From the NCBI GenBank assembly GCA_015231405.1, contig JADGBR010000001.1:385762-449761 (forward strand): a stretch of DNA of 64,000 nucleotides, read 5' to 3'. Positions 37,101 to 58,335 of the stretch are shown piece by piece. A program made the translations under genes and the position numbers. The stretch comes from Candidatus Omnitrophota bacterium. GTDB lineage: Bacteria > Omnitrophota > Gorgyraeia > Tantalellales > Tantalellaceae. The notes beneath the pieces were generated by a model. The model was not told the origin of the DNA and did not search any database. It saw only the letters and a program-made list of their open reading frames with translations. How positions within the stretch are numbered: the stretch's first letter is position 1; each line of letters begins with the position of its first letter.

Positions 37101-40100
37101 TGGAGATGTGTCTTTCGACGAGGTGAAGGACGGAAAACACGGCTGGTTTAGGGAAGGGCGCGAGAACTTTCCGTCCGAATGGCAAGAGGTCGAACCTATT
37201 ATGCCGGACAGGGAAAGAGGAGAGAGCCTGGATGAAGCCGAGAATAGATTTTATGATGTACAGGCTCCAAGGGGGAACACGCTCGGCTGGTCCTTTAAAA
37301 GGGGGATAAAGGGGGGTGAGAGCGTTACAGGAACCGTTCAAATGAAAGCTAAAGGATACTTTGATTCAACGAACTGGGCCAGCCCCGCTCTCGACGTTGG
37401 CGAGTACTTGGCAAGTGGCAACGCTTACGCGATGAGGGAAGGGATGGAACCGTATTTTGACAGATACGATTCGCATAAAATGTCCGATATGGTGGAAAAG
37501 ATAACGTTAGGTCTGGCAAATACGGATCTGGTTCATATTTCGTTCGATTGGAATGGACGGCAATATATCGTTTCCGGCGGGGATGCGGGCATAAAGATAT
37601 GGGACATCTCGAGGGGAAAGGTAATGACGCTCAAAGGGCATGCGGGCAAAGTCACGAGTTTGCAGCTCATCGAGCGAAAAGGTAAAAAATACATCGCGAG
37701 CGGCGGCGATGACAATGATCGGACCATCAAACTCTGGGGGTTGGAGGATGGAGAAGAGTTGGGCATAGGTTTTGTGACAACGATCAGAGGGCATTCGGCC
37801 GGGATAATTAGTTTACGGGTGATAGGCGATAAATATCTTGTAAGTGGAAGTAATGATCTAACGGTAAAGCTCTGGGAGTTCGAGGGTGATGATGAGTTGG
37901 GCATAAACACTGTGACAACGCTGAAAGGTCATAGTGATTGGGTTAGAAGCCTGGAAGTGATCGGGACCCCCAAGGGGATATTATTCGCGAGCGGGGACAT
38001 GAACGGTAAGATAAAACTTTGGTCATTGACCGAGAGCGGGGAAGTGATCGCAGGGAACGTATTAACTATCAAAGCCCATGGCGGTTGTGTCCAGGCATTG
38101 AAGCTCATGAGATATGGTGAAAAGACGTATCTGGTCAGCGGAAGTTGGGACAAAAGCGTGAAGATCTGGGAACTGGGAGAGAAAGACAATGTGGATATAG
38201 CGGGAGTTACTGTCCTTAAAGGATTTAAGAATAATGTGCTGAGCCTCGAAGCCATTAGGCGCGGTGATAGGACATATCTGGCGACCGGAGGGGAGGAGGA
38301 CGGAATGGTAAAACTCTGGTCTCTATCAGGCGAAGCGGAGCTCAGTGTGGATGGAGTGACTATTCTTAAGGCGCATACCAAATGGGTCTCGAGTATACAG
38401 GTCATAGTACGTGACGGTAAGGAGTATCTTACCACCGGAAGCGGGGACGATACGCTTATTACCTGGGATCCTTTCCGCAAACAAAAATTCCACGAAGCCC
38501 TGGCCTACCTCGATGCTTGGGAAAGAAAGGTCGAAGGTCCCTCCTTCGTTAAGGCTTCGGAGGGCGGGCGAGGGTCGTCGGTCGAAGGGCCAATGCCCAA
38601 TGCTCCAAGCCCCCTGCCTGACCGGCAGGTAGGCATGCCCGAAGCCGGCCTTGGCGGCGGCGCCGACGACTCCAACGGCCCAGCTTTCAATGCCGTCGAC
38701 CCCGGGATGGACCTTCCCGAGGACAGGGACATAACAGAGGCCAGGTATAAGCTCAGGTCGCGGGGAAGAGCCATGCTCATATGCGAACCTGGTACGCGTG
38801 AACGCGTTATAGTCGACGAAGTGGCGCGGCTCGAAAAATTCAAATATGTTTATAAGCTAGAAGGGCGGCCGTCGCTCGCGCCGGAAGACCTTATAGGCTC
38901 GAAATACCCGGTCCTTGAGGAGGAGAAACGGGAAACGAACGAAGAATTCGTTTTCAAAAAGGGCTTCCTTACCCGGCATATGTTAACGGAGGAAGAACAC
39001 GCTAAATACCTGGAAGAAAAGTCCGCAGGGAAGGATTTCCCGAAAAAACTGCTAGTTATTTACAATATAGACGCTATCGGCGAGAAAGCCAGGGCGTCCC
39101 TCAACAATCTCTTATTGAACGGTTATCTGAACATTCCTTCGGTGGGCAAGCTCTGGTTGCCCGACAATGTCGAGATAATAGCGACGATGAGGGTCGGTTC
39201 ACAGCAGGAATTCTCGAGCGCCTTTCCGAACAGGATGACCAAAGGGAATATGTCCCCGATGGAAGCCAAGGGCTGGGGGGCTTCGGATTTCGCGAAATAT
39301 TGCCGGAATGTGTATGGGTTCGATAAATACGTTCTCGGGAAGGATGATAAAGGCAGACCTTACGATATAGCCGACGAAATTGAGCTTCTTTATGACAATA
39401 TCAGGAGCCAGGAGGTTACGGATCGCGTCTGGCCGTCGAGGATGACTTACGGTTTCACCGTCAAGGACGCTTTAACCCACGCCGAGTTCACTGCGCTCGC
39501 GATAGCGGAAAGAAAAAAGATGGGGCTTGGTGAGCCGGGGAAGGACGAGTTAATGAATATCCTGGTCGACGAGGCTATGAGGGTTTACGGGTTCAAGGTG
39601 CGGCAGTTCCCATCGGATTACGATTCGTTCGTCGATTCCATACTTAAGATGCAGTTTAGCCATAAATACGTGGAAAGGGCCGTTATCCGGGACGACGTGA
39701 AGATATCCGCCGGTAAGCTCAGGGAACTCTCTGGGATACCCATCTCGCCGGGTCACGGCGCTCTAGGAATGACGCTCATTGAGCGTAATTACCGGCTGAC
39801 GCTCGTCGGCAGCATGGTGGGAACTATGTCGGCGATGATAAGGGGACTTGCCGCCGGTAAAGTGGTATCGTTCACCGGGGATACCGGGGCCGCGAAGACG
39901 ACCATGGCGGTCGCGCTCGCGCGTATGACGGGCGTAAAGGATTATGTCTTCAGTATGCATAAGGACGTGAAGGAATACGATCTCACCGGAGCCGTCAGGA
40001 TGACCGATAAGGGCCGTTTTACTTTCGAGATAATGGAGTTCGCTAAACAGCTCGAAGAGGGTAACACCATGCTCATAGTCGATGAGGCCAATATCAAACC

Positions 40101-43100
40101 CGAGATACTCTGGCTCCTTTCCGGCATAGCCCGCGGCGAAAAACAGTTCACTATAGAAAGGCCCGGGGATAAGCCCCATACCTTTAATATAGGAGAGAAC
40201 GTGTACGTAGTATTCACCATGAACCCCGAAGCCTACGGAGGCGGGCGCGGGGCGATACCGATACCGCTCAAGGAGGATATATTTAATATTTGGGTGCCGG
40301 ACTATTACGAGTATCCGGAGATGGCGCGTATAGTCACGGAATTTTTCGGCGGCATGCCGGAGCTCGCCAATATTACTGAGATGACCCCGGCCGAAACCTC
40401 CAAGGCCTCGACCCTTGAATTGGACAACAGGTTTTTCGAGATAAAACGCCTCTTTAGCCATCTTTACGCCAGGATGGAAGTCGAGGACGTAGTCAACGCC
40501 ATATATGATAAAGGGTATGAATTTACAATAGGCACGTTATACGGCCTGACTAAGGATAATGACCCGGCAAAGGCCAGGGAGAAATACTATGAGCTGAAAC
40601 GGGTAGAGGAAGAAATAATGTACGATCCGAAGGTGCGGGGAAAGATGTTACGTATTAGGACAAAGGTCGCGCTAATGGAGAAATATCTCAGGGACAAAGG
40701 CATGACCGTCAGCGTGAATTTCAGTCTATTTACGTGGTGGAGTCAGGGTGTGCGTGAAAAGAACGGCAAAAAAGAAATAATAGTGAATGTCCCGCTATAT
40801 GAGCTTGTCGACAAGAAAGACCATCCAAATATCAGGAAAGAAGGCAAGTCCGACAAGGTCATCGCCGGGCTTATCATACACGAACTAAGGCACTATTTGT
40901 ACAGCCCTAAAGACAATCTCGAATGGCGCGATATCGGTGTTGATATCGGGATAAACAGTTTTGCCCCGGAGATAAGAGAGGTGTTTGACACGTTCACGGC
41001 AGATCCGAAGGATAGGACGGTTAAGCGCCGGAGGGATGTCTTTCAGCTTTGGAACGCTCTGGAGGATGTTCGTATAGATCTTATGGAAAGGGATTCGGAG
41101 CATTTCCGGAGGCTTAAGGGCGCGCAGGAGAACGTCGACGAGATGATAAAGGATATGTTCAAGGATGAGACGAATGACCCGGGAGAGTTCGAGAAGAGAA
41201 AGAAAAAGGCCGTACGCGCCGCCTGGCTCCATCCTCATGCAATGCTGAGGGACGTATTATTCCGCTACGGTTATACGGGGGAATTCGGACCATATTTCGG
41301 GTTTTTTGACGAAGAACTGAAAAAGGCCGTACAGGAATTGACCGGTGCTATGATAGAGGCGACTCAGTCGTCCAAAGCGCGAATGAACATGAGCGATGTC
41401 AGCTCAGCTGGGGATTTTCTTAAAGAAAGGCGGCGCGCGTCAGGGGAAAGCGTTAAAGTGATACTCGAAAAGATATTGCCGAAATATCTTGAGCTCGCCG
41501 AAGAGTCGAAGAAAAGGGTTGATGAGGAAAAAAAGAAAAAACAGGGAGGCCCGAAAGGAACGGAAGTTGAAGAAGGAGACGGGAGTGAAGGCGGAGGGGA
41601 TCCCGGCGAGGGAGGAGAATCCGGGGAAGGAGGAGCGGAAGGTCTAGGTTCGGGTGGAAAACAGGAATTCTTGTTCATGCCGCCTGAACTCATGGAAGAG
41701 ATGTACGGAAGCGGCGATGAAAATAGCGGGGACGAGGGCCAATCCGGAGGGAAAGGAAATACCGGGCCCATGATAATAAGCCCGGGAGCGAAGAACGGTG
41801 TGAGAAAACCAGGTGACGGCCTCCCTGAGGATATGACCCCCCACGGAGGATCCGCCGGTACCCCGGGGGACGATGGCGGCAAACAAAACGCCGGAGGAAA
41901 AGACGACTCTCCGGACGACACGGAGGGCGATGACAATGACGGCCCCGATACCGAGGGCATGTCAAAAGCTAACCGCAGCCGAGCGATCAAGGAAGCTTCT
42001 TCCAAGATCAACAAAGAGCGGCTCAAGGGTGAGCCTATCAATCAAAGGCTCTCCGAGGTCGGAGGCCAGGCTAAACAGCTCGCGGAAGGTCTGATCAATA
42101 TATTCAATGTGCCGGAAGAAACCGAGGTGGAAGAGTCCGCTTACGGCAGGATCATTAACATGATAAGGATCATCATGAAGAGCATGACCCCTTTCGACGA
42201 GGAAGTCGATACGGGTAACCGCCCGGATCTCGCGCTTGGAATGACGGCCGATCTTTCCGGAAGCATGAAGGATTTCTTCCCGGCGATAAAGAAACTGAGC
42301 GCCATTTTTATCAGCTCGTTCCAGCGGATAGGTAAAAAAGCCGATTTCTCGGTGACTTTGGACGGGCCCGACGAGAACGGCGTCGACCATCCCCACAATG
42401 TCATAGATTTCGGAGAGAAACACGCACAGGACGAGCTCAACGGCGTACAGAACAGGGTGGAAAAGACCATGGCGAGGGAAGGCGGCGGAGGGATACACGC
42501 TTACAGCTGTCTTGAAGCGATAGTAGAAAAACACAAACGGTCAAAACAGAAAAATAAACTTGAGGTCATATTCACGGACGCTATGGACACCGAAGGAATG
42601 GAGTCCGAGAGGGAAGAAAAATTCCGGGAAGCCGAAAAACTGGGTGTTTCCATTTTGGTCGTGGGTTTCAGGAACCAGCAGAACAAAATGCAGGAAGTGT
42701 TCGGCAAGCACGCTTCGTATATCCTGGTCGACAGGGATAAACCCGAAGCGATAATAGGGGTCGTCCTTAACGCCGCCAAGATAAAGGCCAGGACCGGCAA
42801 GATACCTAAGGGGAATATCGGCCCGATGTTCGACCAGAAAGAGGGCGGAATGCTTGTTCGTAATGCTATGGACCTTATAACGAACGACGACCTCAGCGTA
42901 AGGATGAAAACGGAGAGCGAGATAAACGCCATGCGGTCGCTCGCCGATGTTCGGAGAACGGCGCTATACGAGGCGCGGATGACCGTCAGACAATTCAGCG
43001 TCCGCGACAGGCTTGAAAAGCTTATTGCCCGGTCCCGTGACGCTATAAGCGACCTCTGGAGGAATAACGGCAAGGATATAGTCGTTATGCCCGACCTTCT

Positions 43101-43686
43101 CTCGGACCCGTCCGTCGGCCGTATAGCCAGGGGCGCGAAAGACTTCGATAAAAAATTCGAGCAGACCACCGTCCCTCTTTTGTACAAATACGCCGACGGC
43201 GGCGCGAAAACCGAAGATATGAAGAAGCCACTTACCAGGGTTTTCCTGGAAGCGATAGGGGAGTTCGGTAAAGGCGGAGGAAGGAACGGCATACTCGTTT
43301 ATTTCCCCGGGGCCCTCAAGGATACCGGCCTCCTGGCAGAAGTAATGTCGGATGACCGAATAGCTCCTTTCAAGGACCACATAACCGTCATATACGGCGA
43401 TTATACACCTGGCGACCGCATGGACATAGTTTCGCATATCATCCTAGCCAAAGCCCTTCTTAACTACAATAGATACAAAAAAGGGATATACGGCAAAGAA
43501 ATGGACCCCGACGCGATAATGCGCCTTCTCGAATACCTCAAACTCTTAGTCGACGACAAAAAAGAGATAACAGAATCATTCATTACCGCTCTCCGTAACG
43601 GCGCCATCCTAAAGATCCGCAAACTGGACGTCAACGACATAGCCGCCCAGGAATCCCTCCAAACCGCCTTCTGGAAATCCGTCTAA
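25198..43686 (+). CDS. Giant 6162-aa secreted midasin-like protein: signal peptide, shared N-terminal twin-GX2H domain, three MoxR-type AAA+ modules, tandem WD40 propellers, HExxH motif, acidic G/E/D-rich tract, C-terminal vWA/MIDAS
   Basis: Uninterrupted 18,489-nt ORF. Signal peptide MKFKNFVKITAILVTVSFLQQSTFGYAQ. GIIHIQDAHC (25414-25443) and TGGFH (26641-26655). Walker A: GATGAGKT (29233-29256), GPPGGGKT (31309-31332), GDTGAAKT (39877-39900). Walker B: VSEMN (module 1, Asp replaced by Ser), IFDEG (31540-31545), IVDEAN (40081-40086). HELRH (40879-40893). Acidic low-complexity tract EEGDGSEGGGDPGEGGESGEGG...DDTEGDDNDGPDTEG (41560-41960). MIDAS DLSGS (42250-42264) with downstream IFTDAMD. Confidence 0.92.
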   Translation: MKFKNFVKITAILVTVSFLQQSTFGYAQFEYGDSTITKTDLGGNVEEKSVSFVPSSLATIKRSYTGDDKNAPGIIHIQDAHCVYPCQERINTILEHLEKDRGIKRIFLEGGSGRYDLTVFRQIADRELRREVSEVFMKEGVINAAEYFAANSDREIELIGVEDPALYMRNLGVFRETNKSIADETGLLEKFKVLMKKIASGVFSEDLAVFYSFYEGHKTDKIGLAEYIMYLSKVTGAAPGMRSPDAGNIAKIMKISAMEKAVDFRKAEKERTDMLDHLFRTLPNSIKERLLTEMVAYKKGERLDLEFNEYLAGVFGNTGESAGVRHEELDKYIEYLREWSGVDSFKLMEEIPLMENEIKKRFAANAGERTLVDIWDRVEQTEKILGFKLVSDEYVRIKTDTFKYTFGGILEDMRKAFAVDFSEDIEDLVAELGKADRDNRLIKNVLGFYEYSFERDGVFIEEINNAGRQGNGAGDGVSVFMTGGFHTGNICSLLEKNGMSYVSVIPKFDNEEGSSERYFGILAGKREGLVGGITAAMSNLQVPTLLDQALGAEVWGKGGIGRMEAAVYVQTLVSKGYRVEIYDDVTGETLFSYGKGGKLIRCARTNFPREVHERFIAETEGDAGKAGIAGEEVADDANVNAENVGKVLKERVYLRDEELEALVSGVIDYHSKFNELLEGVRKAASDPARFKISIREIKRFSDDFKRIFLALVASGYERTDSLTTAIGYASRNIYMDMLDEKSPEYQAMARLMADTDILSIPGIVKGNGDNLFDRTYAKVARAIDSGIPALFIKDKDALGALERAIKKYSQKPGVKVVNMECTPASDSAQLIGGFMPKGRVDVAEAYKRVGMAISGKAALSIIEILAELLDKKKEEVTEKERKDFTEIYDEGKGDEGLIIAAAMVLEDPKSWRNKLVYEKGLLARIIDKCKEDKDTTYIFNIENIEALPGRIRAQLNAFLLTGELRVPGAPGKKDRKLIAPKNLRIIASMSDEAVLEDGAFYDRFLRKKVAGANEDDFRALAKKDLPEIKEDTVKFLLKFREELNSGVSECSLADLMGIVKYAAEAASVNGDSVDQLVIAAYETGKYFDAKGVSKEKRADHDSVVMTSFAAMNDDSSLAPGDVSGVLDLFWDPARPGSGPPTFAWGGPGGLDRATLIKILRHIAVVAGGKSEMTMGEMSGVFQDEFGALLNTEVVDRYKGKFGDKPVDEFVSLLVFAVDGNDRSGVIVNLLEPFGPAAGGAGTDIAELMKVKNSGMRYDRGEKKIIFDIYAPGLKINKDISDKLERYISDRVKQKGKGGFSPDDEDGAIRDFFMDELDYFIGTDEKRMLSAVARSMEYGNGVIRIEGATGAGKTYTAELLSRIMDFGDEVRSRFYSEPVNKETKLARFLGYFRADKFGYYSIDQTTPFLDILKYGGVAAVSEMNTSVKDEYAKLAWWFIQFARGDREIFLNEYPRKGENGAISPSIKRHPKALIIIDVNPEDYEGRGKFPRELIENTPSVYVDEKMNDLEHIKKVTRAFLKHIDDGEKKDALVDFIAGAHVKIFDKVKEANENGDRYPPLSYRELARVTKSIPAGLAMNESLVMAEKAVNKYYIKAFVSEQIKSDLKLGLLLWSATEERDEIIKDVLFGNPEGRSPPVLVTSSSDENPFEDIDSAVNMFKEENPDKELYRERVRVTWFDDEFKLFGGFLPISIREKASAAAERLKVLLADAGTRDKANGIYRELQAKSAQPVNDLPEDISGLGDNFILSLSEALDALRSGREWTQALRYENGIIPRLIDEAERERKAKGKDAKIFIIELENIHRIKPGLAVAFNSILQEGYYYDPASHTRKQVPANLKFVATSVSESPLPFSVAEESRWVRLKQTERVFDPLDTGSAFQGIIPAMIRDERKKRVEAGMPDGGEDPSTDDLNKVTQSVLAYLRPYFINHLTSSKEAKIFVADFIKELTSIPDMVKLIRDDDEGFLRLISRSFALSAAMSFRGQGAGDSVKKTCRGYFDTTLAGKEALEKDDLLEDIDELVRVEAATFHAFNSDRIVLYEGPPGGGKTDMAIDVARRLGLKDYLFSCHNRVHTSELLGTFSQRSNGDFYYTGVPDSDGHYPEADFLEAMTHGGVYIFDEGAIGKRAQELLSVLSVLARGEKLFMLNEIPGYPPKEINVHKDFHIIITMNPPEETVGREPLPLEVYDQARKIWINNGLTQDSYRRIIRKFLDLSAREFGITLSSLFGSDEPGASDAFADALTGIHKTINSLVGKKISLSENVNLHLVTLRDMKAMVKDMVRYSAKGANRTEAFRIAVRNAYIDQFNRLRDRPGIADELGKLFRVDAMTGTRDVLAANGINIDVFLAGLIERELDKRYLDINELGGDESPGAILNEAPLVGPIPALDHPFGIDGSDIAETYEEPEQLRAPQCFSSNEFMKTRVDYTVKEMIVSPLSGPAGKTILGLVCGLWNYTLGRLFGRIIPLGRSKFSSGNFRVSTVKKVRGGADVQYNRPESGEWQPLMAKTDRSLDQYLGRIRASANPFVRYELPGNNRGERCVTSLKIGGREHLAFIDENEHKTVNIADMSRPGLTSSIVSLSAGRSDISYIKAIYIGKKQYLAVCHVGGEMALWDLSRKGKEKVIYLNFGWDVQDIAGIDLHGQNCIAILHAYKLTGRVLSDGCIRVIDLGTGEIRSVDLPKGYFREGKIFSENDSGKNKLFVNGRTNEVYMYDLDTKKLSMGLTDRKTIAPGDVSVFGMGKTFSVMPAEIPDTNGREGVALLDWDSSVQWVYPLELPHNKVKVMAEVRSGEKTYLVIAAGKGIVLWDVMGKSYKSVEYPFDGHIQRITALGDTGLFAVTDNHGTVRIWDIDIERHIAETRVKAEALERGEIPAGNDLPYGLKKRDLYGPEKFLGIKEEVETGIAPRAESGASCVYSGIQLKAGKSEKVRSGGDITKFREALVSDREARLFTRELSKEEIVAIPSANIVDIDKDASWGPGVLDMDNIFVELGATRGESLFFRVEKLSDQLERNDIHEIRELRMALDDKQEKVASGVIDVAGLSCLLTTDIKGVISLWDLKNDNVVRLKVCDNLVDKLVVMKNREGDVELVVPGDNNQLLFLRFAGGSGGIIPAGMRRVNTTADISGLDVIRDDKERDCLVFAGTEKLIAEPGQISYGLDRYPTLKVLSFTGETSGYITEIKAHPEAPGVLNVVKDDMGLGRLVSGEKFNMKLWGFAWKDGRIEGGSVSKFQVEGLAMENGTLIKDDIGRSHLVLPVKYENGRRLIMLDFDFKNGVLKGGISRTVDLKLKDISGVTAISDLDGDDRVVVSCDNSVIKMIGFDWDNGEIKGANSITFENPDSGGDIYGVHTFRAEDGTEYLVARRSGGRLDLWDPFIADKLAEARDLYDSGERSQAADTTPPLSAEALAKANAPSPMPAIPHGFTREQLLQEQDWHGEKVVLLKGDIVKGIPMEDIRKGDKYGWYGESYEKDPTVTGEVIHLTNGPADGLSIMTKTGKMVKGKERKFKKLGTPEKGNTLGWSMTRKIHEGELGTGKFERKDEEFFRLMNRDDQGDETRRHIDAGNAYIMTGEIMDEIDHGDPRKVSDMAEKIKHDSEVNEIKVFKCRGREIIVTTCLTNFIRIWDIEKNKVTTILGHNNVIFGLELLERSDKVYLVTGSSDNMIKFWALNAVGEVDRDHVTTLHGHSDSINDIRVIEREDGVYLVSASEDKTVKFWKLKGAGGIEFSEVTALKGHSGQVTKLEFFARDKKLYMASGDRVGAVKIWAFRGKSGADMESVTTLPEMKMDVSDLRILECAGKMYLAAGEGNGNIKLWGFAGDAGVNISGVTTVRVCNNGFGVMSSGGRTWLVTGGSDAVVKLLEISGKEGEDVVKGMTVLKGHGSYVTGVYVFEREGKQYLATGSEDKTFIVWDPFREEKFHEARAVVEAWERSHASDPMLQAPSSIPEAPSPMPDIPHGFTREQLLLEQEWHSEEAVLVNGDVSFDEVKDGKHGWFREGRENFPSEWQEVEPIMPDRERGESLDEAENRFYDVQAPRGNTLGWSFKRGIKGGESVTGTVQMKAKGYFDSTNWASPALDVGEYLASGNAYAMREGMEPYFDRYDSHKMSDMVEKITLGLANTDLVHISFDWNGRQYIVSGGDAGIKIWDISRGKVMTLKGHAGKVTSLQLIERKGKKYIASGGDDNDRTIKLWGLEDGEELGIGFVTTIRGHSAGIISLRVIGDKYLVSGSNDLTVKLWEFEGDDELGINTVTTLKGHSDWVRSLEVIGTPKGILFASGDMNGKIKLWSLTESGEVIAGNVLTIKAHGGCVQALKLMRYGEKTYLVSGSWDKSVKIWELGEKDNVDIAGVTVLKGFKNNVLSLEAIRRGDRTYLATGGEEDGMVKLWSLSGEAELSVDGVTILKAHTKWVSSIQVIVRDGKEYLTTGSGDDTLITWDPFRKQKFHEALAYLDAWERKVEGPSFVKASEGGRGSSVEGPMPNAPSPLPDRQVGMPEAGLGGGADDSNGPAFNAVDPGMDLPEDRDITEARYKLRSRGRAMLICEPGTRERVIVDEVARLEKFKYVYKLEGRPSLAPEDLIGSKYPVLEEEKRETNEEFVFKKGFLTRHMLTEEEHAKYLEEKSAGKDFPKKLLVIYNIDAIGEKARASLNNLLLNGYLNIPSVGKLWLPDNVEIIATMRVGSQQEFSSAFPNRMTKGNMSPMEAKGWGASDFAKYCRNVYGFDKYVLGKDDKGRPYDIADEIELLYDNIRSQEVTDRVWPSRMTYGFTVKDALTHAEFTALAIAERKKMGLGEPGKDELMNILVDEAMRVYGFKVRQFPSDYDSFVDSILKMQFSHKYVERAVIRDDVKISAGKLRELSGIPISPGHGALGMTLIERNYRLTLVGSMVGTMSAMIRGLAAGKVVSFTGDTGAAKTTMAVALARMTGVKDYVFSMHKDVKEYDLTGAVRMTDKGRFTFEIMEFAKQLEEGNTMLIVDEANIKPEILWLLSGIARGEKQFTIERPGDKPHTFNIGENVYVVFTMNPEAYGGGRGAIPIPLKEDIFNIWVPDYYEYPEMARIVTEFFGGMPELANITEMTPAETSKASTLELDNRFFEIKRLFSHLYARMEVEDVVNAIYDKGYEFTIGTLYGLTKDNDPAKAREKYYELKRVEEEIMYDPKVRGKMLRIRTKVALMEKYLRDKGMTVSVNFSLFTWWSQGVREKNGKKEIIVNVPLYELVDKKDHPNIRKEGKSDKVIAGLIIHELRHYLYSPKDNLEWRDIGVDIGINSFAPEIREVFDTFTADPKDRTVKRRRDVFQLWNALEDVRIDLMERDSEHFRRLKGAQENVDEMIKDMFKDETNDPGEFEKRKKKAVRAAWLHPHAMLRDVLFRYGYTGEFGPYFGFFDEELKKAVQELTGAMIEATQSSKARMNMSDVSSAGDFLKERRRASGESVKVILEKILPKYLELAEESKKRVDEEKKKKQGGPKGTEVEEGDGSEGGGDPGEGGESGEGGAEGLGSGGKQEFLFMPPELMEEMYGSGDENSGDEGQSGGKGNTGPMIISPGAKNGVRKPGDGLPEDMTPHGGSAGTPGDDGGKQNAGGKDDSPDDTEGDDNDGPDTEGMSKANRSRAIKEASSKINKERLKGEPINQRLSEVGGQAKQLAEGLINIFNVPEETEVEESAYGRIINMIRIIMKSMTPFDEEVDTGNRPDLALGMTADLSGSMKDFFPAIKKLSAIFISSFQRIGKKADFSVTLDGPDENGVDHPHNVIDFGEKHAQDELNGVQNRVEKTMAREGGGGIHAYSCLEAIVEKHKRSKQKNKLEVIFTDAMDTEGMESEREEKFREAEKLGVSILVVGFRNQQNKMQEVFGKHASYILVDRDKPEAIIGVVLNAAKIKARTGKIPKGNIGPMFDQKEGGMLVRNAMDLITNDDLSVRMKTESEINAMRSLADVRRTALYEARMTVRQFSVRDRLEKLIARSRDAISDLWRNNGKDIVVMPDLLSDPSVGRIARGAKDFDKKFEQTTVPLLYKYADGGAKTEDMKKPLTRVFLEAIGEFGKGGGRNGILVYFPGALKDTGLLAEVMSDDRIAPFKDHITVIYGDYTPGDRMDIVSHIILAKALLNYNRYKKGIYGKEMDPDAIMRLLEYLKLLVDDKKEITESFITALRNGAILKIRKLDVNDIAAQESLQTAFWKSV
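25400..26740 (+). other. Shared N-terminal domain (copy 1 of 3 in window) with twin GX2H motifs; hypothesised Tiki/TraB/GumN/EreA-like
   Basis: The motifs GIIHIQDAHC...EGGSGRYDLTVF and VFMTGGFHTGN...YVSVIPKF are conserved in the N-termini of the 6162-, 2263- and 1992-aa proteins. Confidence 0.55.
32750..33750 (+). other. Degenerate WD40-like beta-propeller region (module A) in giant protein 2
   Basis: Weak WD-like blades: LAVCHVGGEMALWDLS, IVLWDVMGKS, TVRIWDIDIERH. Much less regular than modules B and C. Confidence 0.4.
35950..36910 (+). other. 7-bladed WD40 beta-propeller (module B) in giant protein 2
   Basis: Blades end in IRIWDIEKNKV, IKFWALNAVGE, VKFWKLKGAGG, VKIWAFRGKSG, IKLWGFAGDAG, VKLLEISGKEG and FIVWDPFREE. 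LKGH/LHGH motifs precede each blade. Confidence 0.8.
37530..38480 (+). other. 7-bladed WD40 beta-propeller (module C) in giant protein 2
   Basis: Blades end in IKIWDISRGKV, IKLWGLEDGEE, VKLWEFEGDDE, IKLWSLTESGE, VKIWELGEKDN, VKLWSLSGEAE and LITWDPFRKQ. Classic GH...WD spacing. Confidence 0.85.
42230..42720 (+). other. C-terminal vWA/MIDAS domain of giant protein 2, immediately preceded by an acidic G/E/D-rich tract (41560-41960)
   Basis: LALGMTADLSGSMKD (DxSxS), then LEVIFTDAMDTEG and VSILVVGF beta-strands. An acidic tract followed by a MIDAS domain mirrors eukaryotic midasin/Rea1. Confidence 0.7.
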
Positions 43687-43829
43687 AGGAAATATATCCT
43701 GCAATATATCGCGAATAAATGTCCCCTCGAGCCTGATCAAATTCCTGAATAACAGGACGAAATCCTGAAAATGAAAAAGCGTTTTTTTGTTATTTCAAGA
43801 TATCATCTGGCGCAAATTCAGCTTAGAAA

Positions 43830-44095
43830 GATCTGGATTTGCCAGTACCAATGATCCAGCGCAAATCGAGGACATCAGCCCGAGATTTGCCAATCCAGCG
43901 CAAACCGAGAGCCAACAGCCCGAGATTTGCCAATCCAGCGCAAACCGAGGGCCAACGCCCGAGATTTGCCAATCCAGCGCAAACCGAGGGCCAACGCCCG
44001 AGATTTGCCAATCCAGCGCAAACCGAGGGCCAACAGCCCGAGATTTGCCAATCCACCTCAAACCGACCCGAGATTTGCCAATTCACGTTCCACAC
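43830..44095. repeat. Tandem repeat array, about 6 copies of a 39-40-bp unit (CCCGAGATTTGCCAATCCAGCGCAAACCGAGGGCCAACG[C]), with degenerate first and truncated last copies
   Basis: Unit starts (CGAGATTTGC) at 43881, 43921, 43960, 43999, 44039 and 44069. Copies are directly abutting with no spacers. The array lies in the convergent intergenic region after the ORF2 stop (43686). Confidence 0.85.
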
Positions 44096-44105
44096 TCATA
44101 GCTAA

Positions 44106-44236
44106 CCGAGATTATCGGACATTATGCCCAAAGCTATTACGAACCAAGCATAATGTCGGATAATCTCGGTCATATTATCGGATGTTGTGGTTCCCAAAGC
44201 AACTCCCCGAGCCAGAACCACAACGTCCGATAATAT
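44106..44236. other. Two adjacent long hairpins (22-bp stems, 20-21-nt loops) sharing a TTATCGGA/TCCGATAA core
   Basis: Hairpin 1 arms are 44106-44127 and 44148-44169 (CCGAGATTATCGGACATTATGC / GCATAATGTCGGATAATCTCGG, 1 mismatch). Hairpin 2 arms are 44172-44193 and 44215-44236 (ATATTATCGGATGTTGTGGTTC / GAACCACAACGTCCGATAATAT, 1 G:U-compatible mismatch). Both loops begin CCAAAGC. No flanking T-runs. Confidence 0.7.
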
Positions 44237-44283
44237 ATGTTATGTTAACTTGGCGTATGTGTAGCTGGTAAATAAGTATTGAA

Positions 44284-44739
44284 TTATTTTAAAGCGGTTT
44301 TAATATACCCAATGAACCTTTCAAAATCCGGAAGACGGTTTTGTACCATATCATATAGCTTATTTATATCTATCTCGAGATACTCATGGACGAGTATATT
44401 GCGGAAACCTGCCATCCCTCGTATCTCTTTAGCGAACTCCGCCGGAATGACATTTTTTTCGCCAAGTTTGACGATAACATCGGTATAGTCCTCGATCCCG
44501 TTCTCGCCGATCTCGGCAAGGACATGGTTCCCTATATCTAACAGACACTGAATGGCGATCTGAAGGCCGCGTTCAATTGCCCACTTATCGAAACAGGATG
44601 TTCTTATCTTTTCAAGCGGTACAGACCGGAGTCTTTTAAGATCATGAACAGTTCTTGTCAACTCGTCGATCTTTTTAATGATGATTTGAATATCTACCAT
44701 TTCCTCACCTGTATGCCTCAAATAGGGGTTTAACGTCAA
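44284..44739 (-). CDS. hepT: HepT-like (DUF86) RNase toxin of a HepT/MntA toxin-antitoxin pair
   Basis: 151-aa ORF with the Rx4HxY motif (FRNILVHEY, ~44380-44403). It overlaps the upstream MNT gene by 35 nt; an alternative start at the internal Met near 44700 would give a 4-nt gap. Confidence 0.75.
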   Translation of the reverse strand: MTLNPYLRHTGEEMVDIQIIIKKIDELTRTVHDLKRLRSVPLEKIRTSCFDKWAIERGLQIAIQCLLDIGNHVLAEIGENGIEDYTDVIVKLGEKNVIPAEFAKEIRGMAGFRNILVHEYLEIDINKLYDMVQNRLPDFERFIGYIKTALK

Positions 44740-45094
44740 GATAACGCCTGAGCGCGTCCACCTGCAGATGGATCCGTCTTTTTTCGTTCCGTGAATAAAT
44801 AAGCCGGCCGCGCGCGATGATCCTGTGCTTCAGGAGGATCGAAGCCTCGTCGATGATAACGAGATCGATATTATTAGTTTTTAAGAGTCCCATCAGGTCG
44901 GCTATTATGTGAGCTTTGTAACTGTATGGATATTCAGCCTCATTTATGATATCCCTATTGATGTCTATCGCGATATCGATGTCGCTAAGAGCGTTATTTT
45001 TACCGGAAACGGTCGATCCGAAGATATATGCTATCTCTATTTCTTTCATCTCGGCGAAATAATCCTTTAGTATAGGCGTATAAATCTTAAGCAT
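44705..45094 (-). CDS. mntA: MntA-like minimal nucleotidyltransferase antitoxin
   Basis: 129-aa ORF with the NTase motif GSTVSGKNNALSDIDIAIDI (GS...DxD). Located immediately upstream of hepT on the same strand and overlapping it. Confidence 0.75.
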   Translation of the reverse strand: MLKIYTPILKDYFAEMKEIEIAYIFGSTVSGKNNALSDIDIAIDINRDIINEAEYPYSYKAHIIADLMGLLKTNNIDLVIIDEASILLKHRIIARGRLIYSRNEKRRIHLQVDALRRYLDVKPLFEAYR

Positions 45095-45256
45095 AATTAA
45101 TTATAACATGGTGTCACGGGCTCAACAATAGACGAATTTAAACCATTCAAGTTAGAACGCGCGTAATACCGAAGGAATAGTACAGGCGCATTCGCCGGCA
45201 ATGGATCCGCTGACAAATACGCTCATTTGGGAGAATATCCAATTAATCGCTAGATA

Positions 45257-48200
45257 TTATAGCGATCTTAATACTTCTGTTTCGGCCTTATAGAATTCTC
45301 TTATTTCATTTACGTTAATAGGCCTTATCACCACAAGGATCTCTCCTGAAGCAACCAGCCTCCTCACTTGCTCAGAGTCCTTTGGAGCGATCATGTCCAG
45401 AAAATCCATATAATTTACCGTACCTGACATTAACGCCAGTCTTTTAGCGAAAAGCTCCGTCGCCTCGTTGATATCTTCCAGGTAAAGGCTTACATCGGTA
45501 GGCGCTCTCTCTAACCTGCTAGCCCAATGAGCGCTGTCCAGGTAGGCTATGCCCGCCAAGATCGACCCCTCAACCGGCTGTGTTTTTTTTCCTTCCGGGT
45601 TTTCGGTGCCTAAGTAGACCATATAGGCGTTTTTTTCAACTTCTTCATTCCTCATGTCTCCTTCGTTCCTTGATGTGAACACAATGGCTTTATTAACGCC
45701 GTATTGTTCTGTCATGGCAGCTATATCATGTACTTCATCGGGATTTGTCTCGTCAAAGAAACGTATCGTTATATTTCCTAATTTCAATTCCTTTATTTTG
45801 TCGCTTGCCGCGCCTCTGACTTCCTGTATATACCCCTGAAGTACAGAGTCAATTTCACCGGCCGCCTCGGCATTACGGCCTATTCCTATAAACGTCTCTT
45901 CGCCTTCAAAAATATTTTTCGAACACTTAGCAAATATACCCATGTCAAGATCTTTGGCCTTCGCCATGAGGTCCATGAAAATGTCGCTGTCAACGCTTAT
46001 CGGTTCAAGCCCATTGACCTTGATGACGATTGACGGCTTTTCGATATTTTTCAACGCGCTCGTTTCTCTTTCTACGCTTGGCTTTTGGCTGTTGATCTCA
46101 TGCGCAGATACTCCGCCGTTTTTGCCTGGCATTTTAGCGCTGGTCACTTCCTCATCAGGAACATCTCCCGCTGGCACACCGGCGAAAGTCGGAACTTGGC
46201 GGTTACCTGGCTTACTCATCGCGTTTATCACTATGGATTTCTCCATCTCGTCACGGTTTGACATGCGGTCTAGCTCATACTGGCTTGCTTCATACGCTTT
46301 TATAATATCATCCTTTACATCGGATTCCAGGGCGAGCGAGTTTATGTTGTCATGCAGAACCTTAAGAATAGCTTTAAATACCGCAAAGTCTTTCATTATC
46401 TCATCTGTACCTATTCCGCCTCTTTCTTTCGTGTCAAAGGCTTTGTTTAAAAGTATATCCGTAAAGCCTCCCCAAGGGTTCTTTAAGCGCCATTCAGCGT
46501 TAATATTCCTGAGCATGTCAATAATCGCGTTCCTTTGAAGCGCATGGATCTTATTCGCCGAAAGTCCCCTTCCGTCCCCGGAAGGTTTCATGCCAAGGAT
46601 CTTCACCAGGTCTCTCTTCGTCTGAAAGGTATTTATGATCGTACCCACGCTGTCTGCCTGCAGATTGAACAGGAATTTTCTTCTTGCTTCATCAGCTATC
46701 TCCGCAAGGTCATCCCATTCGCCGGATACCATCTTTATGACCAGGTCGTCATCACCGAATCTGGATCTGTCTTTGCCGACCACATCACGCCAGAAAATGT
46801 CCTCATTCGATACGGCAGTATCTCCCTTAAAACGAAGGTCAGATTTTTTTATCTTGAATTTGGCTTTTGTTCCGTTAAAGGTCTCGGCGTCTTTTACGCC
46901 GATTATCTCTAATTCACCGTTTTTCAATAAGCCCAGTAGAAAATCGTGTATCTGTTTGTTGTATCCCACATACTGATACCCTCTTGCCTTTTCGCCTTCA
47001 AGCCAGGCCTGATGAGTCTGTTTGGCAAGTAAAGCCAAAGCGTCATTCCCGGCCGAATCATATATGGAGCGTGTTTCATTAACAAATTTATCACGCATAT
47101 CTCCGCTTATTTTCTGCAGACTTTTCAAGGCATCATAGTTGGTCAAGCCGTTTTTCATCCGGGCAATGATCTCCCATTGCCGCACATTCCATTCTTCAGC
47201 CATGGCGTAAAACACATCATAGCTGAATGAACCTTGAATTACCGCTTTATCGGCAAACATATCCGTAAGATCTTTTACGGTCTTAGGCACCAGGTTGAGC
47301 TTAACATGTTTCAGGCTATTGATGTTTTTACCGGCCCTTACCCTGAAATCATTGTCCCCTTTTTGATAGACCTCTGTAAGGTTTCTAATAGATCCCGAAT
47401 AGAGGCTTATGACCTCATCCTCAACGCCTAGAGCTTGTAATCTTTCCGTTATTGCCTGGGCAACCTTCCTTTTTGCGGCGTTTTCGGTCAAAAAACTCTC
47501 CGCCGCCAATGCGCCTGATATATCCTCACCTATACCGCTAAGGCTTTCGACCTCCGGCCTTTCCCGGGTATTTTTTAATATTTCCGCTTCCAGTGCCGCT
47601 TCAGAATCGAGCTCTAAAAGTATGTCATTTATCTTTTCGGCGTCTTTCTGAAGAATACCCACCACCCCGGGGTTTAAGGCATATTTTCCAATATCCTTTC
47701 CGAGAACCGCGAATATTGCCTTCATTACGTCAAAATCTTTTTTAATTTCTTTCACGCCTATGCCGTTTTCACTTACGTCAAATGGCCTGTTCAGTAATTT
47801 ATCGTTATATCCTCCCCAGGGATTTTTCAACCTCCAAACGGCGTTTATATTTCTAAGCATTTCGATCACCGCCTGTTTCGCCTCATCGACGTTATCTGAT
47901 ACCATTCTGCTCATTAGTTCCGCGTCCTGCATAGCGTTAATGATCGCTCCTACGCTGTCTGCCTGCAGCTGGTAAAGGTAAGCCTTTCTTCCGGCAGGAT
48001 CTATGCCTTCAACATTATCGGCTATCTCAACTAGATCATCCCAGCTGCCGGCTATATTCTTTATTACAATATCTCCATCATCAAATGTATCGGCTTTTTT
48101 CCCTATAAGCTTCCAGAAGTCTGCCGCGGAATTGCCGGGCCTGAATTTAAGATCATTTTTCTTTATTTTAAACTTGGTCTTAGCGCCGTTAAAAGCGTTA

Positions 48201-51200
48201 ACATCGGCTATCCCTTCTATAGTAAGATCTCCCGCTGCCATCATCTTTACGATACCCCTATGAATAGCGATGTTATACCCAACGTATTTATCTCCTCTGG
48301 CCTTTTCGCTTACCAGCCAGGCTTCATGGGTTTCTTTCGCGAGTAGCAGTAATGCCTGGTTATCACTATCGTTGAGTTCTAATGTGCCGGATTCGAACGC
48401 CTTTCTCAATCTGTCGTTCTCAGCCTTTACCTTCATTAACCCCTCATATACGGGTAACGCCCCTGCCAAACGGGCCTCTACCTCTATTACGTCGGTATCC
48501 CAAGCCTTTGACAAAGCAAGGATGATGTCTGAGTTCACTTTATCTTTTACCTGCTGGGCGCTTCCAAACACGCCTTCCAGACTCCGGCCGTTCCCTAAAA
48601 CATTGACAAGGTCTTCTAATGTGACAAATTTTGCTTCTTCGATCCTCTTTTTGCAATAATCATACACCTCTTTTTCGAAATCACCCCATTCTTTTTCCTC
48701 TGTATCGCTGATCCACTCTATTTTCGTTGCCCTTCTGCCTTTTTCTTCTTTATGATATTCTTCTATAAGATTCAGAACATCCGCCGGCATCATATTGTCG
48801 ATCATGAATTTCATAAGATTCATCATGCCGTCTCTATTTTTACCGAACTTGACTTGCGCCCAGGCCCAGCGATGCGAACCGGCAACCTCAACGCTGCCTC
48901 TATTCCTGCGGTCCTTAACTTCATGTTCTTTTAAAGCCTCCAGCATAGCCGGATCCGATTTAAGCATTTCCATGGTCTCTCTGGTAACACAAATATCAAT
49001 TTCATCAACATTCCTGCGCTTTTTTCTTATTGCGAAATTGATCTTCCGGTCCGCGTTAAAGAATACCGGCTCAGTATGCATATTCGGTTGTAATACCCTG
49101 AAATGAACCTTATAACCGTCATAAGGAGAACCCTTTTCGCTGTATACCAGATCCTGATAACCTTCTTCCGGAAGCGAATTATTGAACACATCCTGAGCTG
49201 TCTGCCTTGGGTCGCCTGCCGTATCCCTAACCTGGTCGCCTATCTTTACGGCGGCTGAATTTTCGCTGCCGGTTATATGAGCGCTTGTTATCTCACTTAT
49301 ATTCAAAATAATATTTTTAAGATCGCCGTTCACTATCATGGCGTCCTGTTCATTTTCCGGCTTTGAGCCTTTGTATATACCCACGCTAACCGTTCTAGCT
49401 GTTTCCCCGTCACCTTTCATGTCCATCTTAAATGAAACTAAAAGATTGTCTGCCTTATCGATCTCACTTCCTGAAATAACGACATAAGACGATTCTGTCT
49501 TGCCTCCTAGCGCCGACTCATTCCATTCCTGCTGGACAATGAAATTCTCGCCTCTTCCAATTTTCGCCAAAACCGCTACCTGCCTTTCTATGCGCGCCCG
49601 GTCAGGGCTTTCTACATCGGAAAACGCCGACAGTATCGCGATATTGGCATTCGCGGGATTTAAAGCCATTACCATGTCCAAAAACTTGTCAAATTCCGAG
49701 ATATCGCCGGATAATAATCTGAAATATGGACAGCCTTCGTACACCTTGAATTTAGGCATCACGCTGATATATGAATATCCTTCCGCCGCGCAAAGTTCGC
49801 GGAGATTGCTTTTATGAAAACCTCCTGTTACGAGCACCGCGATATTGGTACCGTCGGCAATCAGCTTATCGTTTATCTTTGACATGAACGCTTCATCGCG
49901 CTCAAAGGAACAGTCATAAAATTTTTCCATCTGCTGCATAAAACCGTCCAGTCGATCGATACTTTCCGGAAGCTCAGAGGCAAAACCGTGTTTCCTGTTG
50001 AACCCATTAAACAACCTTTTAATGTTAGATACGCTGAATTCGCTTTTGTGGCTTTTGTAATAAAGGTAAGTGTCTTTTACCAGGCCCGCTCGCAGTAGAT
50101 CCCCGATTATTTCTAAATGCTTCTCAATGAGATACAGATCTTTCTGGTCATCCTCGCTCATAAGAGATAGCATAAGTTTCTCCTCGATCGCGGCGAGCTC
50201 TTTATGAAGCATTGCTTTATCAATTTTTTCAAACTGCTCAAGATACGCAGAATATTTGACCAGATTAGGCAGCTCATCGAAATCAATAAGCTCCTTCCTC
50301 GCCTTCCTAAAAAGATATTTATACAGATCATCTTCATTAATGTCCTTCGTCCCGGCCTTCAAAGACATCATCGCTAATTCTTGTTCGTCATTTCTGGACA
50401 GCTTTTTGCTCAGCTTTTCGGTCAAAAGGTTTCTTTCCTGTCTCGCCTTCCTGAAATCTATATATTGTTCCTGCTCGATAACCTTTACCAGATCATTAAA
50501 ATGCCCATATCCATCCATCGATACGCCATAAGTGCCGCAGTTTTTATTTAAAAGCAATACCAGTTCTTTAAATCCGTCTTTTTTGCCCCTCTGATCTTTA
50601 AGGCTCCCGCTGACCTGTATCATTTCTTTTGAATAAATCTTGCTTCGGTAATTTAAAACCATGCTCGTTAACGTATTGATATCTTTTTCAGCTTCATCTT
50701 TAAAAGACATGGAATCCCTGAAAGCATTGAGGTTTTTAAAATATAGCTCAGGCATTTCCACCCCGAAAAGTTCTACAGCCTCCGGATTTAATAATTTAAA
50801 GTATTCAGGTCCGCTTAGGCGTCCTTCCCTCACAAAATAATCGGCTATTTCCTCTCTGATAGCGGTATCCTGAATGTCAGTGAAAACTGAAAGATCATAT
50901 TGCCCGCTTCCACCTTCCAGAAAAACAAGGTCTACCCCGTGATTGGCCGATAAATATCCGATAATATTTGAAATGGACTTTTGCGCGAAGTAATTACAAT
51001 GCGCGTCTTGAATATGCAGAATTGTTTTTCCGTTTGTGCCTGGAAGAACATCCTGTACACTGCCCATGCTTAAAGGTATATCCAAGCCGGCAATATCTGG
51101 CGGCACTTGTGCTTGCAGGTTTTCAGCTTTGGCTGAAGTCTCAAACGAACCGAAAGAAAATAGACTAAACATAAAGAAGACCGAAGTTGCAAGTGATACG

Positions 51201-51235
51201 TAATTAGTAATGGTCTTTCGTTTATAAATATTCAT
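45257..51235 (-). CDS. Giant 1992-aa secreted protein with the shared N-terminal twin-GX2H domain, an internal ~230-aa duplicated module and the shared C-terminal EVLRSL domain
   Basis: AAGGA lies 7 nt upstream of the ATG at 51235. Signal peptide MNIYKRKTITNYVSLATSVFFMFSLFSFGSFETSAKA. ILHIQDAHC (~50999-51025) and TGGFH (49814-49828). Duplicated modules ALLLLAKETHEAWLVSEKARGDKYVGYN... (~48360-47700) and ALALLAKQTHQAWLEGEKARGYQYVGYN... (~47050-46350), each ending ...WRLKNPWGG.... C-terminus ...INVNEIREFYKAETEVLRSL. Confidence 0.9.
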   Translation of the reverse strand: MNIYKRKTITNYVSLATSVFFMFSLFSFGSFETSAKAENLQAQVPPDIAGLDIPLSMGSVQDVLPGTNGKTILHIQDAHCNYFAQKSISNIIGYLSANHGVDLVFLEGGSGQYDLSVFTDIQDTAIREEIADYFVREGRLSGPEYFKLLNPEAVELFGVEMPELYFKNLNAFRDSMSFKDEAEKDINTLTSMVLNYRSKIYSKEMIQVSGSLKDQRGKKDGFKELVLLLNKNCGTYGVSMDGYGHFNDLVKVIEQEQYIDFRKARQERNLLTEKLSKKLSRNDEQELAMMSLKAGTKDINEDDLYKYLFRKARKELIDFDELPNLVKYSAYLEQFEKIDKAMLHKELAAIEEKLMLSLMSEDDQKDLYLIEKHLEIIGDLLRAGLVKDTYLYYKSHKSEFSVSNIKRLFNGFNRKHGFASELPESIDRLDGFMQQMEKFYDCSFERDEAFMSKINDKLIADGTNIAVLVTGGFHKSNLRELCAAEGYSYISVMPKFKVYEGCPYFRLLSGDISEFDKFLDMVMALNPANANIAILSAFSDVESPDRARIERQVAVLAKIGRGENFIVQQEWNESALGGKTESSYVVISGSEIDKADNLLVSFKMDMKGDGETARTVSVGIYKGSKPENEQDAMIVNGDLKNIILNISEITSAHITGSENSAAVKIGDQVRDTAGDPRQTAQDVFNNSLPEEGYQDLVYSEKGSPYDGYKVHFRVLQPNMHTEPVFFNADRKINFAIRKKRRNVDEIDICVTRETMEMLKSDPAMLEALKEHEVKDRRNRGSVEVAGSHRWAWAQVKFGKNRDGMMNLMKFMIDNMMPADVLNLIEEYHKEEKGRRATKIEWISDTEEKEWGDFEKEVYDYCKKRIEEAKFVTLEDLVNVLGNGRSLEGVFGSAQQVKDKVNSDIILALSKAWDTDVIEVEARLAGALPVYEGLMKVKAENDRLRKAFESGTLELNDSDNQALLLLAKETHEAWLVSEKARGDKYVGYNIAIHRGIVKMMAAGDLTIEGIADVNAFNGAKTKFKIKKNDLKFRPGNSAADFWKLIGKKADTFDDGDIVIKNIAGSWDDLVEIADNVEGIDPAGRKAYLYQLQADSVGAIINAMQDAELMSRMVSDNVDEAKQAVIEMLRNINAVWRLKNPWGGYNDKLLNRPFDVSENGIGVKEIKKDFDVMKAIFAVLGKDIGKYALNPGVVGILQKDAEKINDILLELDSEAALEAEILKNTRERPEVESLSGIGEDISGALAAESFLTENAAKRKVAQAITERLQALGVEDEVISLYSGSIRNLTEVYQKGDNDFRVRAGKNINSLKHVKLNLVPKTVKDLTDMFADKAVIQGSFSYDVFYAMAEEWNVRQWEIIARMKNGLTNYDALKSLQKISGDMRDKFVNETRSIYDSAGNDALALLAKQTHQAWLEGEKARGYQYVGYNKQIHDFLLGLLKNGELEIIGVKDAETFNGTKAKFKIKKSDLRFKGDTAVSNEDIFWRDVVGKDRSRFGDDDLVIKMVSGEWDDLAEIADEARRKFLFNLQADSVGTIINTFQTKRDLVKILGMKPSGDGRGLSANKIHALQRNAIIDMLRNINAEWRLKNPWGGFTDILLNKAFDTKERGGIGTDEIMKDFAVFKAILKVLHDNINSLALESDVKDDIIKAYEASQYELDRMSNRDEMEKSIVINAMSKPGNRQVPTFAGVPAGDVPDEEVTSAKMPGKNGGVSAHEINSQKPSVERETSALKNIEKPSIVIKVNGLEPISVDSDIFMDLMAKAKDLDMGIFAKCSKNIFEGEETFIGIGRNAEAAGEIDSVLQGYIQEVRGAASDKIKELKLGNITIRFFDETNPDEVHDIAAMTEQYGVNKAIVFTSRNEGDMRNEEVEKNAYMVYLGTENPEGKKTQPVEGSILAGIAYLDSAHWASRLERAPTDVSLYLEDINEATELFAKRLALMSGTVNYMDFLDMIAPKDSEQVRRLVASGEILVVIRPINVNEIREFYKAETEVLRSL

Positions 51236-58232: not shown

Positions 58233-58335
58233 ATAAAATTAGTCCATTAAATATACAGGTAGACTCATAATCAAGTTTACTGATGAAAAAGAATAAAACA
58301 AAATAAATATATAACTATTTTAAAGACTAACGATA

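Follow-up and report, generated by a model that had tools for sequence, protein, structure and literature searches.

Two long hairpins lie side by side in the gap between convergent genes in the stretch of Omnitrophota DNA analyzed here (64 kb, hereafter 'the window'), and the question they raise is whether they act as RNA, as a copy of some dispersed repeat, or as part of a DNA site. The original prediction, made from the hairpins themselves, overlooked what follows them: the 3' arm of the second hairpin runs directly on into a dif site, i.e., the site at which Xer recombinases resolve chromosome dimers. The locus is a dif with an unusual, lineage-restricted and conserved hairpin-forming module on its XerC side, and is more than a pair of terminators.

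To our knowledge, a dif site has been regarded as a bare core of 28 bp under the control of FtsK, and we know of accessory DNA at plasmid sites only and of folded substrates only in the attP of phages and the attC of integrons. If the reading developed below is true, a conserved hairpin that holds the XerC arm and the cleavage point, beside another palindrome of XerC half-sites and an array of related boxes, would constitute a new layer of cis control in chromosome dimer resolution, and would offer a testable handle on Xer biology in the Omnitrophota, an uncultivated phylum.

Results

A dif site overlaps the second hairpin

The hairpin region ends in a 28-bp Xer recombination core at 44223-44250 on the forward strand, ACGTCCGATAA|TATATG|TTATGTTAACT, with an 11-6-11 organization: an XerC arm (ACGTCCGATAA, 44223-44233), a central region (TATATG, 44234-44239) and an XerD arm (TTATGTTAACT, 44240-44250). 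Compared with DBBBCSBATAATRTAYATTATGTHAANT, which we take to be the proteobacterial dif consensus, this segment has one mismatch and is the sole match in the 64-kb window, where shuffled sequences give a chance expectation of 0.01 matches even when up to three mismatches are allowed. The dif of E. coli reads GGTGCGCATAA TGTATA TTATGTTAAAT. The TTATCGGA 'core' that had been noted in the hairpin arms corresponds to the complement of the XerC-binding arm of dif (..GTCCGATAA).

The 23-nt core of the site, TCCGATAATRTAYRTTATGTTAA, was found at no fewer than 120 loci in a scan that covered one genome per species, i.e., in at least 120 species from more than 10 phyla, with one match per locus, whereas by our own estimate about 0.1 match would be expected by chance. 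Carriers among the matches listed include Sphingomonadaceae, Bacillota, Thermodesulfobacteriota, Elusimicrobiota, Planctomycetota, Acidobacteriota, Omnitrophota and others. For those loci with at least 1.5 kb of flanking DNA on both sides (n = 71), GC skew switches from positive to negative across the 23-mer in 42 and in the reverse direction in only 3, and the skew is higher on the left than on the right in 62; a positive-to-negative switch of this kind is the signature of a replication terminus. Because the 23-mer is conserved in single copy across species and coincides with this skew switch, we regard it as a genuine and widely conserved dif core. A BLAST search of plasmids with the hairpin region gave matches confined to the dif segment, which lay between genes, in unannotated parts of megaplasmids from Bacillus and Sphingomonas, and a BLAST search of phages returned nothing beyond that segment.

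Judged by sequence, these matches establish 44223-44250 as the dif of this Omnitrophota chromosome, the presumptive site of dimer resolution by XerC/XerD-type recombinases. The recombinases are assumed, since no XerC or XerD gene lies in the window; nor was an integrase found among the mid-size ORFs scanned against Pfam.

The window crosses the replication terminus

Curated genomes of Omnitrophota have replichores whose genes are nearly all on one strand (bioRxiv 10.1101/2023.11.21.568195), so that a switch in gene strand marks the terminus. Left of dif, every gene is on the forward strand, and over the ~15 kb to its right (44284-59166) every gene is on the reverse strand, beyond which there is one forward gene (59314-61524). 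The last gene of the forward block is a giant ORF of 6162 aa (25198-43686), whose stop lies 537 nt before dif. The first genes of the reverse block, 34 nt from the XerD arm, are hepT and mnt (44284-45094), with hepT at 44284-44700 (taking the ATG start of database protein P0001) and mnt at 44705-45094. The convergent arrangement originally described, with stops at 43686 and 44284, is thus borne out, and the window crosses the replication terminus with dif exactly at the switch from forward to reverse genes. In this way, the replication terminus of the contig is pinned by dif. The window's own GC-skew flip was rejected as independent evidence of the terminus because skew here tracks the coding strand: the forward gene at 59314-61524 has positive skew too.

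Pfam matches (HepT-like, E 7.7e-30; Polbeta/NTP_transf_2, E 1.6e-19) confirm the neighboring genes as HepT/MNT, by homology a type VII toxin-antitoxin pair, and a 138-aa protein 100% identical to HepT is encoded on a 491-kb contig of a Candidatus Omnitrophica MAG. A reading of HepT-MNT as a dif-flanked cassette was rejected, there being no second dif-like site at 45095-45256 or elsewhere in the 64-kb window, including the 44 kb to the left of dif and the vicinity of mnt.

The window also contains five very long ORFs (5122, 1506, 6162, 1992 and 2263 aa). Two of these, the 6162-aa and 1992-aa ORFs that converge on dif, have an N-terminal region of ~520 aa in common (29% identity, E 2e-59), encoded at 25198-26760 on the forward strand and at 49670-51235 on the reverse strand; it contains HIQDAHC..FLEGGSG.YDL and has no Pfam match. 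For the final 449 aa of the 6162-aa ORF, a search of 5.8 billion proteins detected no homologue. The C-terminal ~200 aa of the 5122-aa ORF and of a 480-aa ORF (15557-16141 and 17780-18412) are homologous to genes adjacent to dif in two other loci (L089, 6039-6653; L122, 1294-1893), with identities of 32-39% for the 5122-aa ORF and 26-29% for the 480-aa ORF, and a homologue of the aspartyl-protease gene at 58336-59166 ends about 60 bp from dif in a further locus, L127.

The hairpins are built from XerC-type half-sites

The two near-perfect inverted repeats are present where they had been reported. Hairpin 1 (H1; 44105-44170, forward strand) has arms of 23 nt (44105-44127 and 44148-44170) around a loop of 20 nt (44128-44147), and hairpin 2 (H2; 44172-44236, forward strand) has arms of 22 nt (44172-44193 and 44215-44236) around a loop of 21 nt (44194-44214). 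The gap between the two, given as 2 nt in the original prediction, shrinks to 1 nt when the longest arms are taken. The arms of H1 are 96% complementary, with a single G.G mismatch, and those of H2 are 95% complementary, with one mismatch that is G.U on the forward strand; together, H1 and H2 are the two longest and strongest short-range inverted repeats of the window.

Folded on either strand, the hairpin region is far more stable than shuffled controls, with z-scores of about -10. As RNA, it reaches -70 kcal/mol on the forward strand and -71.6 on the reverse strand, as opposed to ~-27 and ~-35 for shuffles (z = -10.7 and -9.9, respectively), and as DNA, it reaches -41.7 versus -13.5 (z = -10.0).

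Each arm of H1 is made up of four outer nucleotides, an XerC-arm-like half-site (GTCCGATAAT / GTCGGATAAT) and then six nucleotides (TCTCGG). In H2, the 3' arm comprises the outer flank, the real XerC arm of dif and nucleotides 1-3 of the central region, and the 5' arm is an inverted copy of the XerC arm together with its outer flank and three nucleotides of central region. Because the last half-site is the true XerC arm, H2 pairs the XerC arm, the XerC cleavage point and central-region nucleotides 1-3 with an inverted copy 21 nt upstream. In the orientation of the XerC arm, the four arms read AATGTCCGATAAT (complement of the H1 5' arm), AATGTCGGATAAT (H1 3' arm), AACATCCGATAAT (complement of the H2 5' arm) and AACGTCCGATAAT (H2 3' arm, i.e., the real dif arm), and their alignment shows two palindromes composed of four putative XerC-arm-type half-sites arranged <- -> <- ->. 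The earlier statement that all four arms contain TTATCGGA or its complement holds for three of them, in which TTATCGGA or TCCGATAA is exact, and fails for the H1 3' arm, which reads TCGGATAA and thereby produces the G.G mismatch of H1. Both loops in the window do open with CCAAAGC, as had been noticed, and this loop start is not conserved in related loci.

Upstream of H1 there is a tandem array of 39/40-bp units (43854-44086, forward strand; 5.4 copies at 94% match plus a partial copy), each of which contains the box CCGAGATT and can form a small TTTGC/GCAAA stem. Seven direct copies of the box (at 43880, 43920, 43959, 43998, 44038, 44068 and 44106) follow one another in steps of 39-40 bp, apart from the last two steps of 30 and 38 bp, and the seventh copy constitutes the first 8 nt of the H1 stem. 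The related locus L064 (see below) has, upstream of its hairpins, direct repeats of its own H1 boundary box, CAAGCG[C/A]GAA, and its contig ends within them. Because CCGAGATT occurs in both array and hairpin, and L064 likewise repeats its H1 box, the array and the hairpins look like one module: The array probably belongs with the hairpins to an XerC-side unit that spans about 370 bp in the window.

The module recurs in two other genomes

Among 121 sequences (the window and the genome loci listed, at least 120 in number), the XerC arm lies within a hairpin only in the window and in L064, which is an Omnitrophota MAG. There, H1 reads GCGAGAATATCGGACAT-(7-nt loop)-ATGTCCGATATTCTCGC and is followed by a short spacer, and H2 reads ACATTATCGGACGTTAT-(25-nt loop)-ATAACGTCCGATAATGT, followed by ATGTTATGTTAAC. 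A scan of metagenomes, for which the Omnitrophota-type dif served as anchor, added 13 loci, one of which (L121) has the twin hairpins and 12 of which have none. The module is therefore present in 3 of about 17 loci with an Omnitrophota-type dif (the window, L064 and L121), and it is missing from some 14 dif loci that are related and from some 115 in other phyla, counts that refer to loci with the exact dif sequence on which both the genome and the metagenome scans were anchored. In L127, the dif flank is the most similar to that of the window, yet there is no module.

The window, L064 and L121 have a common layout, in which H1 is followed by a short spacer and by an H2 that overlaps dif, and the inner XerC-type arms stand head-to-head, 10-11 bp apart, in all three genomes; loop length, loop sequence and flanking genes all differ. 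Both sides of the stem have changed at five positions in H1 and at three positions in H2, with few disruptions, and RNAalifold independently recovered the same two helices with eight compensated pairs, the sample for covariation being small (three sequences). One covarying pair falls on position 2 of the dif central region, which is A in the window and G in L064, with T and C, respectively, in the inverted copy. Within H1, the core TATCGGAC/GTC(C/G)GATA is fixed in all three genomes, and the rest of the stem varies.

Where the original prediction had allowed that the palindromes might be absent elsewhere and devoid of structural conservation, they recur in two other genomes with compensatory changes. 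At the level of these alignments, the comparison demonstrates a twin-palindrome and dif layout that has been inherited, with its predicted pairing kept by compensatory change, in at least three divergent genomes.

Two further comparisons were set aside: one of the MFE of dif flanks across 130 loci, because it is confounded by GC content, and one of synteny via the DUF3137 gene adjacent to dif in L121, because related contigs are not syntenic and L141-L144 are without dif. In L141, a Y1 (IS200/RAYT-type) transposase gene (2106-2825) directly follows the LemA-DUF3137 pair, at the place where its relative L121 has dif and hairpins.

Discussion

Proposed function of the XerC-side module

Of the possibilities named in the original prediction, a recombination site fits best, since the common core of the hairpin arms is the XerC half-site of a genuine dif, and what had the appearance of a structured RNA is better understood as one component of a recombination locus. 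We favor, with moderate confidence, the explanation that the hairpins form a DNA module flanking dif on its XerC side, whose inferred function is to modulate Xer recombination.

Under this model, the module would act as DNA and not as RNA, in the capacity of an accessory region. Such a role is suggested because H1 retains a recombinase-arm sequence for which an RNA hairpin would have no need, and DNA is preferred to RNA also because there is no Rfam family, no T-tract and no mismatch pattern that favors one strand. The stems would supply extra XerC-binding duplexes, and where the region becomes single-stranded or negatively supercoiled, as at replication termination, they could fold out. Folding is suggested because the pairing continues past the 11-bp arm in both directions, for which additional binding sites as such would have no need. 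The folded stems might then sequester, or else present, the XerC half of dif, and so tune when and how XerC binds and cleaves, a role comparable to that of the accessory sequences of plasmid cer and psi sites or of the accessory subsites of transposon resolution sites. The upstream CCGAGATT array would probably be part of the same nucleoprotein platform.

Part of this argument depends on predicted hairpin formation, and extra sites alone would need no pairing past the 11-bp arm; moreover, quasi-palindrome template switching could match the arms without selection. Binding of XerC to the extra half-sites and formation of the hairpins in vivo are predictions of the model. Because only 3 of about 17 loci carry the module, it is dispensable and may be a neutral remnant.

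A more far-reaching version, which we consider improbable as a whole, holds that the locus represents an undescribed dif architecture, in which the crossover site lies within a hairpin-forming module of XerC half-sites, as a chromosomal counterpart of attC or of the attP of CTX-phi. With the terminus in a single-stranded or supercoiled state, the stem would take up the XerC arm together with its cleavage point, and this would gate XerC-first, replication-coupled dimer resolution or bar mobile elements that exploit Xer.

Alternative explanations

If the module had no current function, the hairpins could be the relic of one or more small, IMEX-like elements that integrated at dif via XerC strand exchange, with the present dif as the regenerated right junction and with arms that were matched by quasi-palindrome template switching. 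Several features would be accommodated by such a history, which we consider possible but on balance unlikely. The pairing of H2 ends inside the dif central region, where the XerC-side crossover boundary would fall; the presence of the module is patchy (3 of about 17 related dif loci); mini-cassettes that exploit Xer occur within this group of dif sites (e.g., L133); the upstream arrays of partial H1-boundary copies resemble products of repeated recombination or slippage; and a folded single-stranded attP with XerC-only exchange is known from CTX-phi (PMC5357621). However, neither the 44 kb to the left nor the vicinity of mnt holds a direct second dif-like site (attL), and the genes that flank the hairpins are not those of a phage or plasmid. 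The stems have no XerD-like arm, and hence no complete Xer substrate of the kind present in the attP of CTX-phi, and the 'central' TCTCGG of H1 has only its first base in common with the TATATG of dif, which makes it a poor partner for strand exchange. Furthermore, the two-hairpin layout and its spacing have been kept in three genomes despite diverged loops and genes, which would be unexpected for a decaying scar. In another view, the hairpins are an RNA element, i.e., the 3' end of the transcript of the XerD-side gene (hepT-mnt here) or a small RNA, which stops RNA polymerase or blocks 3' exonucleases and lies beside dif only by way of the convergent gap common to both. The preservation of pairing by compensatory changes is compatible with this view, as are the very stable predicted RNA folds on both strands, the transcription of the XerD-side gene toward dif and the hairpins in all three loci, and the G.U mismatch of H2 on the forward strand in the window. 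It nonetheless leaves unexplained both the fixed XerC-arm sequence in H1 and the use of the dif arm in H2; the H1 mismatch is G.G or C.C, and the mismatches in L121 favor neither strand. At most of the related dif loci, convergent genes are present and hairpins of this kind are not. We think it doubtful that the hairpins are an RNA element. Known structured RNAs, one of the options raised originally, found no support: An Rfam 15 scan of 43600-44400, with E up to 10, returned chance-level matches only, the best of which had E of at least 1 and about 19 bits as compared to gathering scores of 90-100. A scan for tRNA and tmRNA returned none, and a promoter scan gave no convincing small-RNA promoter.

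Nor do the hairpins resemble intrinsic terminators, since their stems are 22-23 bp, their loops are 20-21 nt, and neither is followed by a T-tract on either strand, as the original prediction had correctly stated; a scan of 43500-45300 detected no terminator-like site. The hairpins are unlikely to be plain terminators of convergent genes, because T-tracts are missing from both strands and because, in L121, a canonical, bidirectional terminator already follows the upstream gene at a point about 350 nt ahead of the hairpins. A further possibility is that the hairpins are a dispersed palindromic repeat of the REP/MITE type, or a folded site like the attC of integrons, that happens to be situated here by chance. 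Their size of ~65 nt each and their imperfect palindromy do resemble attC sites and REP pairs, and a Y1 transposase gene is present in one distantly related locus, L141. If this explanation applied, further copies would be expected, but the hairpins have none within the 64 kb, and their homologues in scans of public genomes and metagenomes occur only at dif. Neither RYYYAAC nor GTTRRRY boxes occur on either strand of 44080-44270, and no integrase or RAYT was found among the mid-size window ORFs scanned against Pfam. A scan of viral contigs with a generic hairpin pattern likewise produced chance-level matches, two of them in coding regions, along with one unrelated operator-like palindrome (in L136). 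A REP/MITE or attC identity is, in our estimation, essentially excluded. The palindrome in L136 (7141-7186) is a perfect one, GTTATCGGACGTTC..GAACGTCCGATAAC, of the same XerC-arm-like sequence; it occupies a divergent promoter region on an IMG/VR contig of 262 kb, no dif lies close by, and an unrelated operator is its probable identity.

Comparison with known systems

Because it has one half-site per stem, no attC boxes and no second dif-like site, the hairpin-dif locus is a member of none of the systems that combine a recombinase core with additional sites or with hairpins, i.e., cer/psi, resolution sites, CTX-phi attP or attC, and XDS. Its core is that of a classical dif: As in E. coli dif and B. 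subtilis Bsdif, there are 28 bp in an 11-6-11 arrangement, an imperfect dyad of ..ATAA / TTAT.. and an XerD arm of TTATGTTAA, and the site is likewise single copy (here, within the window) and situated at the terminus between convergent genes (PMC5357621). Whereas classical dif is described as a bare 28-bp core, the XerC arm here is the 3' arm of a hairpin with a 22-bp stem, and another palindrome of XerC-type half-sites is located outside that hairpin, 1 nt away.

The accessory sequences of cer and psi are on the XerC side of the core, as are the about 370 bp of repeats and palindromes in the window. At cer (ColE1) and psi (pSC101), a few hundred base pairs of cis-acting DNA beside the core control the reaction (PMC5357621). 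That accessory DNA, however, is about 180 bp, binds PepA together with ArgR or ArcA, and has no recombinase half-sites and no hairpins; the site here is chromosomal rather than on a plasmid, and the likeness is one of functional analogy only. Multi-subsite resolution sites are represented by the res of Tn3 (subsites I-III) and the IRS of Tn4430, which has accessory TnpI motifs. These, like the present locus, combine a crossover site with extra recombinase motifs in a defined orientation and spacing (10-11 bp here, in all three genomes), but need no complementarity past their binding motifs. The stems described here are paired past the 11-bp arm, and because they stay so through compensatory changes, folding is indicated.

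In integron attC sites, the sequence bound by the recombinase is contained in a hairpin stem. Likewise, the attP(+) of CTX-phi presents a tyrosine-recombinase binding sequence in the stem of an intrastrand hairpin (PMC5357621). In both, the stem includes a complete site, with two binding boxes and a central bulge between them, whereas each stem here has one XerC-type half-site, the loop lies on the arm's outer side, and the dif in question is a resident of the chromosome. With respect to a folded attP of the CTX-phi type (IMEX), we find an XerC-type arm only and no second dif-like site in the window; with respect to attC, we find no R'' or R' box in 44080-44270 and no integrase among the window ORFs that were scanned. 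The XDS of the B. subtilis terminus are XerD-binding sites that unload SMC complexes (Karaboja et al. 2021, cited in PMC12322038), and to the extent that they are described there, they too are extra sites for an Xer protein near the terminus with a role other than crossover. In that same description, they bind XerD, are dispersed over the terminus region and involve no hairpins, whereas the sites here are XerC-type and abut dif.

Other loci with related dif sites

Directly to the right of the XerD arm, a motif of ~15 nt, TTGGCAA(T/G)(C/G)GGGGA and variants, occurs in L121 (1025-1040), L132, L131, L129 and L124, and the window has TTGGCGTATGTGTAG in its place. L133, a metagenome contig of 1.4 kb, contains two direct, near-identical dif sites (638-666 and 1029-1058), 392 bp apart, that enclose a 93-aa ORF on the reverse strand with no Pfam match, and looks like a miniature dif-flanked (i.e., Xer-mobilizable) cassette. 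Three related viral contigs from IMG/VR (L137, 1139-1163; L139, 1819-1843; L140, 6308-6332) carry the same dif 25-mer with near-identical flanks, and these copies could be a phage attP that mimics dif or, alternatively, a junction between prophage and host.
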